Source: Desulfobulbaceae bacterium (lineage in GTDB: Bacteria; Desulfobacterota; Desulfobulbia; Desulfobulbales; VMSU01). Taken from it: a stretch of DNA of 64,000 nucleotides. Position 1 is the stretch's first letter, and the number at the start of each line of letters is the position of its first letter. The position numbers were made by a program, and so were the translations under genes. The notes under the pieces were generated by a model that made no database searches, had not been told where the DNA came from, and was given only the letters and a program-made list of their open reading frames with translations. Positions 1-54,158 of this stretch are shown here, piece after piece. The stretch covers positions 104 through 64,103 of the forward strand of contig VMSU01000028.1 of assembly GCA_013792005.1 (NCBI GenBank). Direction: 5' to 3'.

Positions 1-75
1 ATTCGCAAAAGCACACTGCGTCTTGTATATCGGCCCTTTTGCTCAGCCATCCCGTGACTTTTTGTGAGACCATCA
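1..75 (+). repeat. MITE-like repeat family, copy A (left part cut by window edge; short variant with no internal module)
   Basis: Ends in the family terminal sequence 'ccgtgactttttgtgagaccatca'. Shares 'gcaaaagcacactgcg..ttgtatatcggcccttt' with copies at 8800-9016, 12691-12900 and 42296-42497. Confidence 0.6.
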
Positions 76-8799: not shown

Positions 8800-9016
8800 T
8801 ATAAAGAGTGTGAAATTCGGAACCTATCAATGCGTTGCAGCATATTTTTTGCTCATTCAGCATACCATATGTGTGGCTTCATTCACAAAAACACCCTGCG
8901 CCTCGGAGTCTCTCTTCGCTCGCTTACCTGTATGTCGGCCCTTTCGGAGTCTCGCAGGCTCGCTTACCTGCTTAGACATCCCGTGATTTTTTTTGCGAGA
9001 TTATCAACATTAATTC
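8800..9016 (+). repeat. MITE-like repeat family, copy B (two internal modules, degenerate left end)
   Basis: Colinear with the reverse complement of 42296-42497: 'ttttgctcattcagcataccatatgtgtggcttcattcacaaaaacaccctgcgcc'. Modules 'tcggagtctctcttcgctcgcttacctg' and 'cggagtctcgcaggctcgcttacctg'. Right end 'ccgtgatttttttgcgagattatca'. Confidence 0.7.
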
Positions 9017-12690: not shown

Positions 12691-12900
12691 TTGATGATCT
12701 CGTAAAAAGGTAGCCGCTGGTTAAGCAGGTAAGCGAGCCTGCGAGACTCCGAAAGGGCCGATATACAAGGTGCGGGGTGTGTTTTGAGAGAGGTTGTACT
12801 ATGGGTATGCCAAGCGAACAAAACCACCACGCAATTCAGTTCAATCCCCGCTGGTGTCGGACGGGGACGCAGTAGATCGGACTTTTTGCGACGCCATCAA
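12691..12900 (-). repeat. MITE-like repeat family, copy C (one internal module plus a 35-nt hairpin insert)
   Basis: Left end 'ttgatgatctcgtaaaaagg' (degenerate). 'aagcaggtaagcgagcctgcgagactccgaaagggccgatatacaa'. Right end 'cggactttttgcgacgccatcaa', identical to the right end of copy D. Confidence 0.75.
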
Positions 12901-20120: not shown

Positions 20121-20561
20121 ATGAATCGCTTTTTAGACGAAAAAATCATTTCCAACTGGAATCTTCTTTTTCTTTGTTGGCTCATTGCCGCGGCCTCGAT
20201 AGCAGGCAGTCTGTTTTTTAGTGAGGTCATGGAGTTTGCGCCGTGCAGTTTGTGCTGGTACCAAAGAATTTGCCTTTTCCCCCTGCTGTTTATTTTTTTG
20301 ACAGGGCTTTTCCCCTTTGATAGCAATGTGGTCAAGTACGCTCTGCCGTTGACTAGCACAGGGTGTTTGATTGCGTTGTACCAAAATCTTCTCTATTATA
20401 AAATCATCCCGGAAAGCCTCAAGCCGTGCACTCAAGGAGTTTCCTGCTCAGAGGGCTACATCGACCTGTTTGGTTTTCTGACAATCCCAATGCTTGCGCT
20501 TATCGGGTTTTCAATTCTAACAGCGTTGCTCTTGATCCTAAAAAGGAGAATCTCTTTATGA
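20121..20561 (+). CDS. Disulfide bond formation protein, DsbB/BdbC family
   Basis: Four hydrophobic helices, 'CSLCWYQRICLFP' CxxC in the first loop, second Cys pair 'KPCTQGVSC'. Confidence 0.8.
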   Translation: MNRFLDEKIISNWNLLFLCWLIAAASIAGSLFFSEVMEFAPCSLCWYQRICLFPLLFIFLTGLFPFDSNVVKYALPLTSTGCLIALYQNLLYYKIIPESLKPCTQGVSCSEGYIDLFGFLTIPMLALIGFSILTALLLILKRRISL

Positions 20562-29874: not shown

Positions 29875-30273
29875 TCAATCTGAGTCGGTGTCGAGTACAT
29901 GACGAACCATCTTAGCCATCCCGTGACTTTTTGCGAGACCATCAATACTCTCACTGGAATAGCCTGAAATGAAAATTATTTTGATCCGCTGTGAACGATC
30001 CTTGACGAGTTCAGCGAGCATAGTTCCTCGTCGTGCCGGCATAACCACATCCGTATTGTGTTATGGACAGCACAAGGTATCGATGGAGTTTGGTGTTCCA
30101 TCCACATTGGTATGATGCCAGAGTGTGTGGCTTTCCTGTCCGAGGAGTTCATCCATGGAATAACCGAGCATCCGTTGGGCTGCTGGATTGGCAAAACTGT
30201 GGCATCCTTTCTTGTCTATACCTAATAAGAGATCTGTGCTTGTCCTGACTTTTCGTAAACGTTCACCGGGCAC
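29875..30273 (-). pseudogene. Decayed hybrid sensor kinase remnant (PAS fragment fused in frame to the C-terminal half of a receiver domain)
   Basis: One minus-strand frame reads 'DLLLGIDKKGCHSFANPAAQRMLGYSMDELLGQESHTLWHHTNVDGTPNSIDTLCCP'. A TAA follows at 30061-30063. Then comes 'DVVMPARRGTMLAELVKDRSQRIKIIFISGYSSESI', which runs straight into a MITE end. No HisKA/HATPase lies between them. Confidence 0.6.
29911..29945 (+). repeat. MITE-like repeat family, copy E (solo terminal fragment)
   Basis: 'cttagccatcccgtgactttttgcgagaccatcaa' matches the right ends of copies A and B and the left end of D. The preceding sequence is unrelated to the family. Confidence 0.65.
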
Positions 30274-30444
30274 CCATCTGCTTTGTCAGCAGCCTGCTTA
30301 TGTGCAACAAGCACACTTCGCAGACCGCTTTATTGACCGACGAAGCGGGTCAATATAAATCGCGCATCCGGGGCACCCGGTAAACGTTTACAGTCCGTTG
30401 AAATCCGCACGTTCAACGCTTCTGGTGAACGATTACGACTTTTC
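30247..30444. repeat. Divergent MITE-like element, copy F
   Basis: Inverted ends 'gacttttcgtaaacgttcacc'(30247-30267) and 'ggtgaacgattacgacttttc'(30424-30444). The 53-nt core 30274-30326 is about 80% identical by hand count to 41143-41196 and includes the palindrome TGTGCAACAAGCACA (30301-30315). Size is similar to the canonical copies. Confidence 0.4.
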
Positions 30445-41115: not shown

Positions 41116-41284
41116 GAAAAATGGTAACTGTCCAGCAGTGCCATATCTGCGTTGTTATCGGCCTGCTCATGTGCGAAAAGCACACATCGCAGGCCGATGC
41201 CTAGCATCTGCGGCACTACTGAACAGTTACGGTTCTGGGCTTCGGCACCTTTCTGGGTCAGAAGGTGGATAGTTACGAAAAATG
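41116..41284. repeat. Divergent MITE-like element, copy G
   Basis: Ends 'gaaaaatggtaactgtcc' and 'ggatagttacgaaaaatg' share the inverted GTAACTRTCC block. The core 41143-41196 matches copy F and contains the palindrome TGTGCGAAAAGCACA (41170-41184). Confidence 0.4.
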
Positions 41285-42088: not shown

Positions 42089-42129
42089 GGCGGTTCTCCT
42101 TTGGTTGTGGTTACTGTTGGACTTTGATT

Positions 42130-42309
42130 TTATTGATTGTCTTCGCTCAAGGAAATGGCGCTGACCGGACAGGAATCAATAGCTTCTTGACAATCGCAGG
42201 TCGAGCATTGATCAGCACCAATGACTTGCGATTTTTCATCCTCCATCACAAACATCTCGGGACAGAGATCTGCACATATTCCGTAGCCTATAGCATGATG
42301 GTCTCGCAA
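42130..42309 (-). CDS. Ferredoxin-like 59-aa ORF (atypical Cys pattern; possibly 5'-truncated by the MITE)
   Basis: Hand translation (TTG)MRDHHAIGYGICADLCPEMFVMEDEKSQVIGADQCSTCDCQEAIDSCPVSAISLSEDNQ. Aligns to small Desulfovibrio-type ferredoxins, but the first two cluster Cys are replaced by A and Y. The only in-frame start is a TTG inside the repeat end. Confidence 0.4.
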   Translation of the reverse strand: MRDHHAIGYGICADLCPEMFVMEDEKSQVIGADQCSTCDCQEAIDSCPVSAISLSEDNQ

Positions 42310-42497
42310 AAAGTCCGGGGATGGCTAAGCAGGTAAGCGAGCCTGCGAGACTCCGAAAGGTGCGATATACAGGTAAGCGATCGAAGAGAGACTCCGAGGC
42401 GCGGGGTGTGTTTTGTGAGTGAGGCCATACATCTGGTATGCCGAACGAGCAAAACCGCCACGCAACACAGTAGATCGGACTTTTTGCGACGCCATCA
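42296..42497 (-). mobile_element. MITE-like element, copy D (best-preserved full-length copy, two internal modules)
   Basis: Terminal inverted repeats: 42296-42317 'tgatggtctcgcaaaaagtccg' versus the reverse complement of 42476-42497 'tgatggcgtcgcaaaaagtccg' (20 of 22 by hand). No ORF of its own. Confidence 0.75.
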
Positions 42498-42509
42498 ACT
42501 GTAGCCCAA

Positions 42510-42548
42510 ACAAAAAAGCCCTTGAATCAATTCAAGGGCTTTTTTGTT
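42510..42548. terminator. Bidirectional rho-independent terminator
   Basis: 'aaaaaagcccttgaa tcaa ttcaagggctttttt': 9-bp GC-containing stem flanked by an A-tract and a T-tract. Lies 38 nt downstream of the NlpC/P60 gene stop. Confidence 0.8.
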
Positions 42549-42585
42549 TGGTGATGACCAGAACTCGTTGTTTGATCGTAACATA

Positions 42586-43938
42586 TTATATTATACCTTT
42601 TCCTTCCGCATCGTTGCGCACCGCCAGTCTCGCTTTTTCTTTGAGTTTGCCAGGGTCAAATATTCCAACGCTGACTTTAAGTGATGTCCTTTTGTTTCGT
42701 GCAAGTTTGAACCAATTGGTAATCTCTGCAGATAACGTTTCTTCTCCCACCCGCTTTGCTGCTTTGCCTCCATCGACTTGATGATCAATGACTCCGGAGT
42801 TGACGTAAGTCCACTCTCCATCTTTTTGAGAAATAACTCCAGTGTGGCCTCGAGACGGGGTAGAAAACGAAAGCAACACTCCCTCCTGTAAGAGAGGTTC
42901 GATTCGGGTCATGACATCATCTGCCTGTTGCTCAGCATTGTTGATCACTGAAAAAGATTCATCAAAGAGCTTGTTTCCGGCAACTTCAATCAGACCTTCA
43001 CCATTGTGATAGGCGTTGTGACGAAGTCCTTGGTTTGTGGCAAGTTGAACAAGATGCTGCCGCAGTCCGTTGTTTCCTTTGTATTGGACACCGAGATCTT
43101 CCAGCCCGCGAATGACTAAACCATAGCAATCGATTTTATGATAGGGACGGCCCAGGTATGATTTGACCGATTCAGCAAACCTTTTGGCAAAACCATTGCT
43201 ATTAGAAATAGTTTGAGTTGATTCTATAACAGAGGTGATTGAAGTACCGTTACTCTGGGGCGTGGCACTGATTTTTGGCGCTGTTTTGTCTTGAAATGAT
43301 AACTCCAACGTTTTGGGGTCGATGAAAACCTGAGAGCCTGGTTGTAAGGTTGTGTAAGGTTTGTTGCGGTTTACAGTAGAAAAAATGATATCCCAGGTAT
43401 CGTTACTATAATAGGGATGGTTCTTGAGCAGATGGGAAAGGGTTGGCTGTTCGAAATTAATGTTACCGAGATTTATCAAGCCAGTATCGTTTTGTTGATT
43501 ATTTGAATCTAACACGTTGTTTTCTTGAACAGTTACCGGTTGGGATGGGGTGTTTTCCCAAATGATCTCCTTCGTGGAAGAGTCAAGAAAGACCTCGACA
43601 CCGGGCCTCATGTCGGTAAATTGTTTTTCTTGATTGATATCGGAGAATATAATCTCCCAACATTGAGCGTTGAGGTCTGGGTGGTTGATCAGAAGATGAG
43701 AGACGGAGGGTGAAGAGTCGTTGATTTTCCCCAGAGAGATCGGCATTTTTTGTCCATTGATACCAATAACTCCTGATTTCTCGATTGCATATGTATTGCC
43801 TGATTCACGGCTTGAAACTGTTGAGGTGTTGTTCTGAAAGGAGAGAATAGCGGAAAATTGTTTAGCTGAGCCGGATCGAGGAGCCACGGATCCTCTTGCT
43901 GCTGAGGGCGTCTCAGTATGTAGCGGAGTGATCGGCAT
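42586..43938 (-). CDS. NlpC/P60-like cysteine peptidase with two N-terminal approx. 65-aa repeats; no signal peptide
   Basis: C-terminal 'YHKIDCYGLVIRGL' (Cys nucleophile context) and 'SRGHTGVIS' (His). Repeats '..PSVSHLLINHP..WEIIFSDIN..MRPGVEVFLD' and '..PTLSHLLKNHP..WDIIFSTVN..LQPGSQVFID'. ATG at 43938. Confidence 0.55.
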   Translation of the reverse strand: MPITPLHTETPSAARGSVAPRSGSAKQFSAILSFQNNTSTVSSRESGNTYAIEKSGVIGINGQKMPISLGKINDSSPSVSHLLINHPDLNAQCWEIIFSDINQEKQFTDMRPGVEVFLDSSTKEIIWENTPSQPVTVQENNVLDSNNQQNDTGLINLGNINFEQPTLSHLLKNHPYYSNDTWDIIFSTVNRNKPYTTLQPGSQVFIDPKTLELSFQDKTAPKISATPQSNGTSITSVIESTQTISNSNGFAKRFAESVKSYLGRPYHKIDCYGLVIRGLEDLGVQYKGNNGLRQHLVQLATNQGLRHNAYHNGEGLIEVAGNKLFDESFSVINNAEQQADDVMTRIEPLLQEGVLLSFSTPSRGHTGVISQKDGEWTYVNSGVIDHQVDGGKAAKRVGEETLSAEITNWFKLARNKRTSLKVSVGIFDPGKLKEKARLAVRNDAEGKGII

Positions 43939-53810: not shown

Positions 53811-54158
53811 AGCGAGTCTCTCTTTTTGAATAGGTGGTTTAGAGCTTCTTCCGTCAACATTGTCATCATTGATGAAGGGAAGGTGACTATTCAGCTTGTT
53901 TTTGATCTGTATCGTGTAGAATCGGCTGCGAGAAAGAGGGTGTGGCAGTTAACTGTACGATGAGCGTAACTGCTCAGGTTGTCAGTTTACGGTTGACGGT
54001 GATTGGGTCCTGCCAATGGCTGAGAACACACTGATATTGAGTATCATGCGATGATTTATGACTAACCATGATTCTTTTAACCGTAAACAGATAACTGATT
54101 ACCGTTAACCTGTGTAGTTACCGATGAGCTTAATAAAGAGGTGAAAGTGAATCAAGGT

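Follow-up and report, generated by a model that had tools for sequence, protein, structure and literature searches.

A 202-nt repeat beside a ferredoxin-like ORF as a probable member of a MITE family common in Desulfobulbales

We analysed a 64,000-nt stretch of DNA (the window), which corresponds to positions 104-64103 of contig C128 in a 4.0-Mb, 252-contig, 50% G+C genome of the sulfate-reducer type. The window carries a full-length composite repeat, copy D, at the start of a ferredoxin-like ORF, as well as four further loci of the same family (Table 1). The original prediction for this locus had described a MITE-like repeat bounded by 22-nt terminal inverted repeats (TIRs), and the ends it gave for copy D were borne out: the left repeat TGATGGTCTCGCAAAAAGTCCG faces CGGACTTTTTGCGACGCCATCA at the right, with 20 of the 22 positions complementary. 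The inner left repeat block (L2) of copy D is split by both internal modules, and the right terminal block is the part of the family that is most conserved across the order.

Profile homology of the ORF to ferredoxins begins only at about residue 6-7, and its first cluster cysteine is replaced by Ala. The ORF is probably truncated or rearranged. Copy D itself has no target-site duplication (flanks AGCA versus ACTG). Because the N-terminus of the ORF lies inside an element without a duplication, we infer that a rearrangement or deletion occurred at the left edge of D after insertion. A later rearrangement beside the copy is the most likely reason why D has no duplication and replaces the ferredoxin-like N-terminus. 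The orthologous ferredoxin locus in a MITE-free congener (G048) runs off the end of its contig. Immediately 3' of D, at window positions 42506-42551, there is a perfect 22-nt inverted repeat (CCAAACAAAAAAGCCCTTGAAT / ATTCAAGGGCTTTTTTGTTTGG) that resembles a bidirectional intrinsic terminator; all weak Rfam matches of the region fall there (42500-42600).

Table 1. Window coordinates of copy D and its parts, of the related loci and of the ORF at D.
Feature	Position	Strand	Description
Copy D	42296..42497	+	Full-length composite, 202 nt: subfamily-B core plus two 25-nt internal modules
Copy D, outer left terminal repeat (L1)	42296..42317	+	TGATGGTCTCGCAAAAAGTCCG; 20/22 complementary to 42476-42497
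Copy D, start of inner left repeat block (L2)	42320..42331	+	GATGGCTAAGCA..AAAGG.GCGATATACA
Copy D, internal module 1 (optional)	42332..42355	+	GGTAAGCGAGCCTGCGAGACTCCG; inserted after ..AAGCA
Copy D, internal module 2 (optional)	42372..42396	+	GGTAAGCGATCGAAGAGAGACTCCG; inserted after ..ATACA
Copy D, apical hairpin (covarying central stem)	42423..42442	+	GGCCATAC-ATCT-GGTATGCC
Copy D, right terminal block	42461..42497	+	Contains the right inverted repeat 42476-42497
Copy A	1..75	-	Window part of a 152-nt subfamily-A copy; duplication AAGA
Copy B	~8831..9006	-	Both 25-nt modules; truncated, without the right terminal repeat
Copy C	12692..12899	+	208 nt; module 1 plus the 33-nt 3' module; duplication ACTT
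E (solo outer-left end)	29911..29944	-	34 nt; remainder of the element missing
Ferredoxin-like ORF (Fer4_13)	42130..42309	-	First five codons and the only start (TTG) lie inside D

The repeats A, B, C and E, which had been proposed as relatives of D, were all confirmed as family members after slight adjustment of their boundaries. Copy A extends beyond the window: the complete element spans C128:27-178 and starts 76 nt before it. Three of the five family loci in the window are damaged (D, B without its right terminus, and the solo end E), and the five loci found do not significantly exceed the 2.2 expected (P = 0.07). Two other repeats, F (30247-30444) and G (41116-41284), had been taken for divergent members; neither showed significant similarity to D. 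They represent separate families of ~97 and ~90 loci, respectively, and a 52-nt central piece is common to F and G alone. A fourth family, H (window 54040-54121; ~130 nt), is the most abundant, with ~166 loci, and the D family and the three others together amount to ~480 loci in the genome. Inverted G-family copies at positions 20255-20412 and 24808-24963 of contig C130 bracket two Y1 transposase genes (HUH, IS200 or RAYT-type; C130:20255-24963), one of them with an internal stop, which is a REPIN/RAYT-like arrangement for the G family.

A BLASTN search of the whole genome with copy D returned 230 pieces that were resolved into ~139 loci, 128 of them at E ≤ 1e-5; the earlier estimate of at least seven copies had been far too low. 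Thirty-four loci were located within 60 nt of a contig end, indicating that the repeat breaks the assembly. The basic unit is 152/153 nt long and non-coding, ends in TG...CA, and occurs in two subfamilies that start with TGATGGTCTCGC... and TGACAATCTCGC...; the family ends read TGATGG..TCGCAAAAAGTC. Each unit carries three related repeats of ~20-27 nt, two of them direct at the left and one inverted at the right. The outer left repeat (L1) comprises element positions 1-22, the inner one (L2) reads GATGGCTAAGCAAAAGGGCCGATATAC, and the reverse complement of the right repeat reads GATGGCGTCGCAAAAAGTCCGATCTAC. TIRs were found in 66 of 71 full copies. Family members range in size from 82 to 236 nt, the 82-nt variant being an internal-deletion form. 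They hold only short chance ORFs, in agreement with the prediction that no transposase is encoded.

Size variants arise at fixed places in the unit. One or two optional 25-nt modules (GGTAAGCGA-N7-GAGACTCCG) follow AAGCA and ATACA, and further variants have a 33-nt module near the 3' end; module-bearing copies fall into length classes of 175-178, 183-186, 201-203, 208-211 and 236 nt. The site of module 2 is also filled in the genome of an isolate, 'Thermodesulfobacteriota bacterium B35' (hereafter B35). The 25-nt module occurs 62 times inside D-family copies (in the window, at the two sites in copy D and at 8911-8989). It was also seen inside F-family copies, and a variant (GCTAAGCG..GACTGCG) is present in a third family. 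CA always precedes the module, its variable middle is specific to each site, and two inverted modules make a hairpin in some copies and in B35; the module gives the impression of a second layer of very small DNA units that move or recombine. The 33-nt module TTCAGTTCAATCCCCGCTGGTGTTGGACGGGGA (copy C, region 12860-12880, and other copies) lies between two ACGCA words. In copies without it, the two words stand in tandem (ACGCAACGCA), and this arrangement could stem from duplication on insertion or be the footprint of an excision.

Flanking sequences provided the evidence for insertion. An exact 4-nt duplication flanked 48 of the 66 full TG...CA copies, against ~1.5 expected by chance (shuffled pairing), and a 5-nt duplication flanked eight more, giving 56 of 66 in total. 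The target-site duplications anticipated from a genome-wide BLASTN search were present in the family and missing from copy D. When elements from other genomes were added, 159 of 237 had a 4-nt duplication; among these 159 copies, an A was present at -5 in 154 and a T at +5 in 156. Reconstruction of the empty site gave YY-A-[A N N T]-T-RR, which is palindromic and AT-rich, and the target motif can be written YY-A-[NNNN]-T-RR. With T as its first and A as its last letter, the element can be parsed in two ways that its sequence does not distinguish: TG..CA with a 4-bp duplication, or GATGG..CCATC with a 6-bp ANNNNT duplication.

Paralogous empty sites were found in the H family. The copy at C191:14159-14311 is inserted in an H repeat, where the filled site reads ...AATCA-TGGT-[TGACAATC...CCATCA]-TGGT-TAGTC..., and dozens of uninterrupted H copies present the empty site, ...AAAAGAATCA-TGGT-TAGTCATAAATC... 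A second copy (C75:5406-5562) is inserted at this very position of an H repeat, facing the other way. H repeats are a recurrent target of D-family insertion, at the site TCA-TGGT-TAG. We mapped genes with crude codon-scored ORF calls (2879 genes, 84% of the genome), and on these calls the family is strictly intergenic, with none of 83 interior loci inside a gene.

The repeat is a genuine mobile element, its insertion being documented by the duplications and the paralogous empty sites. The core of the original prediction, that a non-autonomous element has spread in this genome, is backed by these two lines of evidence and by the target motif. The best explanation of the whole is that D belongs to a MITE family that is common in Desulfobulbales and had not been described before, to which we assign a probability of about 0.82. 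The literature searched described no MITE for Desulfobulbales and mentioned none of these sequence strings.

The copies had also been called mostly promoter-proximal and had been suggested to provide redox-stress operons with promoters, operators or RNA structures. The neighbours named for the window were confirmed as a flavodiiron protein (FprA-like), a rubredoxin, a cupin and the ferredoxin-like ORF. In the window, four copies have a gene start within ~90-140 nt, a -35-like hexamer, TTGCGA, points outward at each end of the element, and promoters are known from MITEs such as Correia (PMC10969869), all of which would fit a regulatory cassette recruited for the fprA, rubredoxin, cupin and ferredoxin operons. 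However, the genome-wide placement of the family does not follow this pattern. By crude ORF calls, 49 of the 83 interior loci were in tandem, 18 in divergent and 14 in convergent spacers, a distribution that matches the share of background intergenic length (63/24/13% tandem/divergent/convergent). Within the tandem spacers, 22 of 49 copies were co-oriented with the genes, that is, there was no orientation bias. A search for sigma-70-like promoters in 42100-42700 found none. Across 136 outward flanks there was no excess of -10-like TANNNT at the spacing that the outward TTGCGA would require (1, 4 and 2 at flank positions 9-11, versus a background of 2.3), and an outward hybrid promoter was rejected on this ground. 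In addition, the density of copies in the window is not significantly raised, and the element adjacent to the rubredoxin gene, G, belongs to another family. A regulatory role is thus unsupported, and recruitment as a redox-stress cassette is hardly credible; the association of the family with these neighbours is what any intergenic element would show.

We then considered the fold of the element. Copy D folds at -84.2 kcal/mol (z -5.45) and its complement at -71.1 kcal/mol (z -4.04). We aligned 20 representatives with less than 90% mutual identity from ~14 genomes. The alignment contained two nearly invariant blocks, GATGGCTAAGCA.AAA..CGATATACAAGGCG and CAACGCAGTAGATCGGACTTTTTGCGACGCCATCA. Between the blocks the central region differs wholly in sequence among lineages and keeps its self-complementarity, as in the arm pairs GCTTTTGC/GCAAAAGT, GTCGCGAAA/TTTCGCGAT and TTCCCGGGG/TCCGGGGAA. 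RNAalifold paired the inner left block (L2) with the right block and gave 41 pairs; compensatory double changes occurred in 19 of these. Standard pairs filled 94.1% of the cells, versus 83.6% after shuffling (none of 500 shuffles reached the observed value), and sliding the partner by 1-3 columns left only 26-51% of the cells paired.

The two strands were not equivalent in this analysis. The mean single-sequence energy was -68.8 kcal/mol on the D strand and -56.9 kcal/mol on the other, and the D strand was more stable in 105 of 107 copies. The alignment folded at -37.2 on the D strand versus -28.5 on the other, and a wobble-blind arm-to-arm alignment gave 78 G.T versus 41 A.C oppositions. This asymmetry is partly inherited from common conserved columns; it is not independent evidence and is suggestive only.

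Such a fold could also be read as a host-useful structured RNA on a mobile chassis (a stabilising or RNase-target hairpin, a terminator or a small RNA), with selection acting on the RNA. The covariation, the G.U excess over A.C on one strand and the strength of the fold (z -5.45) are consistent with this, as are the convergent spacers, where 11 of 14 copies are no more than 14 nt away from a stop codon; transcripts of ERIC and Correia elements undergo RNase processing (PMC10969869). However, a strand-specific role in read-through transcripts predicts an orientation bias, and the count in tandem spacers (22 of 49) shows none. The Rfam 15 covariance models gave no match within 42296-42497, either at the gathering threshold or at E ≤ 10. 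The U-tract lies within the stem and not after it, so that the element is not a canonical terminator, and two congeners (G048 and G086) do entirely without the family. We therefore regard selection on a host RNA as improbable.

Desulfobulbales include the cable bacteria and many sediment sulfur cyclers. A search of public genomes for the right terminal 31-mer, as an exact string with two free positions, yielded at least 120 stretches. Almost all of these were Desulfobulbus, Desulfobulbaceae, Desulfurivibrionaceae or 'Deltaproteobacteria' MAGs, together with the isolate B35, in whose genome a 164-nt version of the element is present ~50 times and shows clean 4-nt duplications. Sampling of the order showed the family in 81 of 121 genomes and in 38 of 54 genera, with copy numbers in the tens for most genomes; in a sample of the phylum outside the order, it was present in 8 of 200 genomes. 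Within the genus, three genomes had ~50 or more matches and two, the congeners G048 and G086, had none. Near-identical element ends were also seen on MAG contigs labelled Chloroflexota, Sideroxydans and Desulfuromusa (L005, L031, L091 and L102), which represent either mis-binned Desulfobulbales DNA or transfer outside the order. No viral contig or plasmid record carried the element. An exact-protein look-up for strain-level empty sites returned no record for the protein.

Two spacers common to congeners were examined as candidates for orthologous retained copies and were rejected, because the insertions in them are independent (C156:11650 versus L116/L095, and C133:4005 versus L014). They differ in duplication (AAAT versus TCTCA), position, subfamily or orientation. 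Such independent insertions in common spacers indicate that the family was active separately in each lineage, and the repeated hits in the same spacers suggest a limited set of permissive or preferred spacers.

The search for a mobilising enzyme covered the own genome, B35 and 120 fetched loci. None of these contained two paired family ends separated by more than 350 nt, and none of the integrase-fold transposase genes of the own genome (6) and of B35 (12 rve) was flanked by family ends. An autonomous element with the same TIRs, for which the original prediction had proposed a search, was thus not found in these sequences; as the own assembly is fragmented, the absence of an autonomous partner is not proven. 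Candidate partners were examined individually. An IS3-like element on contig C198 contains TGATGGACACGAAAAC, and it was rejected because 80 relatives place its true termini 17 nt further out (TGAGGTAGG...). This IS3-family element (C198:~75795-77060; ends TGAGGTAGG...) is unrelated to the D family. The same holds for an IS21-like IstA fragment behind tandem GTGATCGCCTTAATGGAGCCAC repeats (C34:1-1750) and for a TnsB-like transposase at a contig start (C108:1-1770). The ends of the IS3-like elements on C198 and C194 and of the IS21-like fragment were unrelated to those of the family. A solo end in B35 (L151) proved to be merely a degenerate remnant.

IS3, IS21 and IS481 elements are characterized by TG...CA termini, with duplications of 3-5 bp for IS3 and 4-8 bp for IS21. 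The D family has TG...CA termini and a 4-5-bp duplication, as expected of this type. From the termini, the duplication and the multi-repeat ends, an integrase-fold DDE group (IS3, IS21 or IS481-like) would be the putative mobiliser.

A REPIN-like route was weighed against this, in which a hairpin repeat is moved as single-stranded DNA by a single-copy Y1 (HUH, RAYT or IS200-type) transposase. It would accord with the long conserved hairpin, its compensatory changes and its better fold on one strand, with a family widespread within its clade and no DDE partner found, and with the several Y1 transposases encoded in the genome. The orientation of copies relative to the sign of GC skew, a test for replication-linked orientation, gave a further point in B35 (L232-L269, contigs 1 and 2), with +18/-9 in negative-skew and +6/-18 in positive-skew regions (Fisher P = 0.005). 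However, a local-skew test found no such link in the own genome (43 vs 53) or in the other loci (66 vs 54), these being fragmented genomes, and we give the B35 correlation little weight. Variable 4-5-nt duplications and empty sites indicate a staggered double-strand cut and not HUH insertion at a fixed target. On C130 it is the G family that brackets the Y1 genes, and D-family ends flank none of the Y1 genes. Movement by a Y1 enzyme is accordingly very improbable.

A reading that goes further is that the whole one-strand fold is selected by the transposition machinery or by the host. The family would then be a duplication-making counterpart of REPINs that passes through a single-stranded (DNA or RNA) hairpin, is served by an unrecognised, possibly single-copy, Desulfobulbales-wide transposase, and contains the 25-nt modules as nested elements. 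We consider this unlikely.

Taking D as a member of a MITE family, we propose the following course of events. A transposase supplied in trans would mobilise the element by way of a staggered 4-5-bp target cut. The sites of insertion are intergenic, AT-rich and palindromic, and their central 4 bp (sometimes 5) are duplicated. Descendants would be left only by copies in which both end blocks are retained and the centre can still fold, which would explain the conserved ends and the compensatory stem; the better fold on one strand may hint at a single-stranded step. Variants arise through internal deletion (the 82-nt form) and through the optional 25-nt and 33-nt modules. Effects on neighbouring genes would be incidental.

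The four repeat families break the assembly at many contig ends, and in the window repeats are found together with gene truncation, at the ferredoxin-like ORF (copy D) and at the solo end E. Knowledge of the family aids genome assembly and annotation, and it cautions against taking nearby repeats as regulatory motifs. With its order-wide spread, invariant ends, compensatory stem and lack of a visible parent, the family also offers a clean case of MITE persistence across an order.

Compared by description, the D family appears closest in character to the ERIC elements. ERIC elements duplicate TA. The D family, in contrast, duplicates a variable 4-5 bp at YYA-NNNN-TRR, its ends are asymmetric (two repeats at the left, one at the right), it lives in another host clade, and its sequence is apparently unrelated. 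The likeness lies in an imperfect palindrome of ~130-150 nt that is intergenic, family- or order-wide and present in a few to hundreds of copies (ERIC/IRU; PMC10969869). Both also show size variants by indels at fixed positions and conservation well beyond the terminal repeats, and a transposase is not known for either.

BOX elements of Streptococcus pneumoniae are built from tandem boxB units and are not known to make a clear duplication. The D-family modules, by contrast, are 25- and 33-nt inserts at fixed sites in a TIR-bounded, duplication-making element. What the D family has in common with the BOX/RUP/SPRITE repeats is a modular build with optional internal units, insertion of repeats in one another and clustering (PMC10969869). 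The Correia/NEMIS elements of Neisseria resemble the family as MITEs of ~100-200 nt with ~25-nt TIRs and more than 100 copies, with subtypes defined by internal segments and a location near genes (PMC10969869). Correia elements have documented promoters, an IHF site and RNase III sites, whereas no such features were detected in the D family; the duplication and the target also differ.

Like REPINs, the D family consists of hairpin repeats long kept within a clade without an autonomous multi-copy parent. REPINs have been proposed to pass through a single-stranded intermediate (PMC3116915), but D-family insertions create variable target duplications, and no Y1 transposase gene adjoins the D family. 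MITEs derived from IS3, IS21 or IS481 elements share with it the TG...CA termini, the 4-5-bp duplication and repeated end motifs that resemble transposase sites; they differ in that no parent with D-family ends was found, the ends and repeats of the C198 element and the C34 fragment being different. The D family has traits of its own in its target, YYA-NNNN-TRR, its asymmetric multi-repeat ends and its compensatory central stem.
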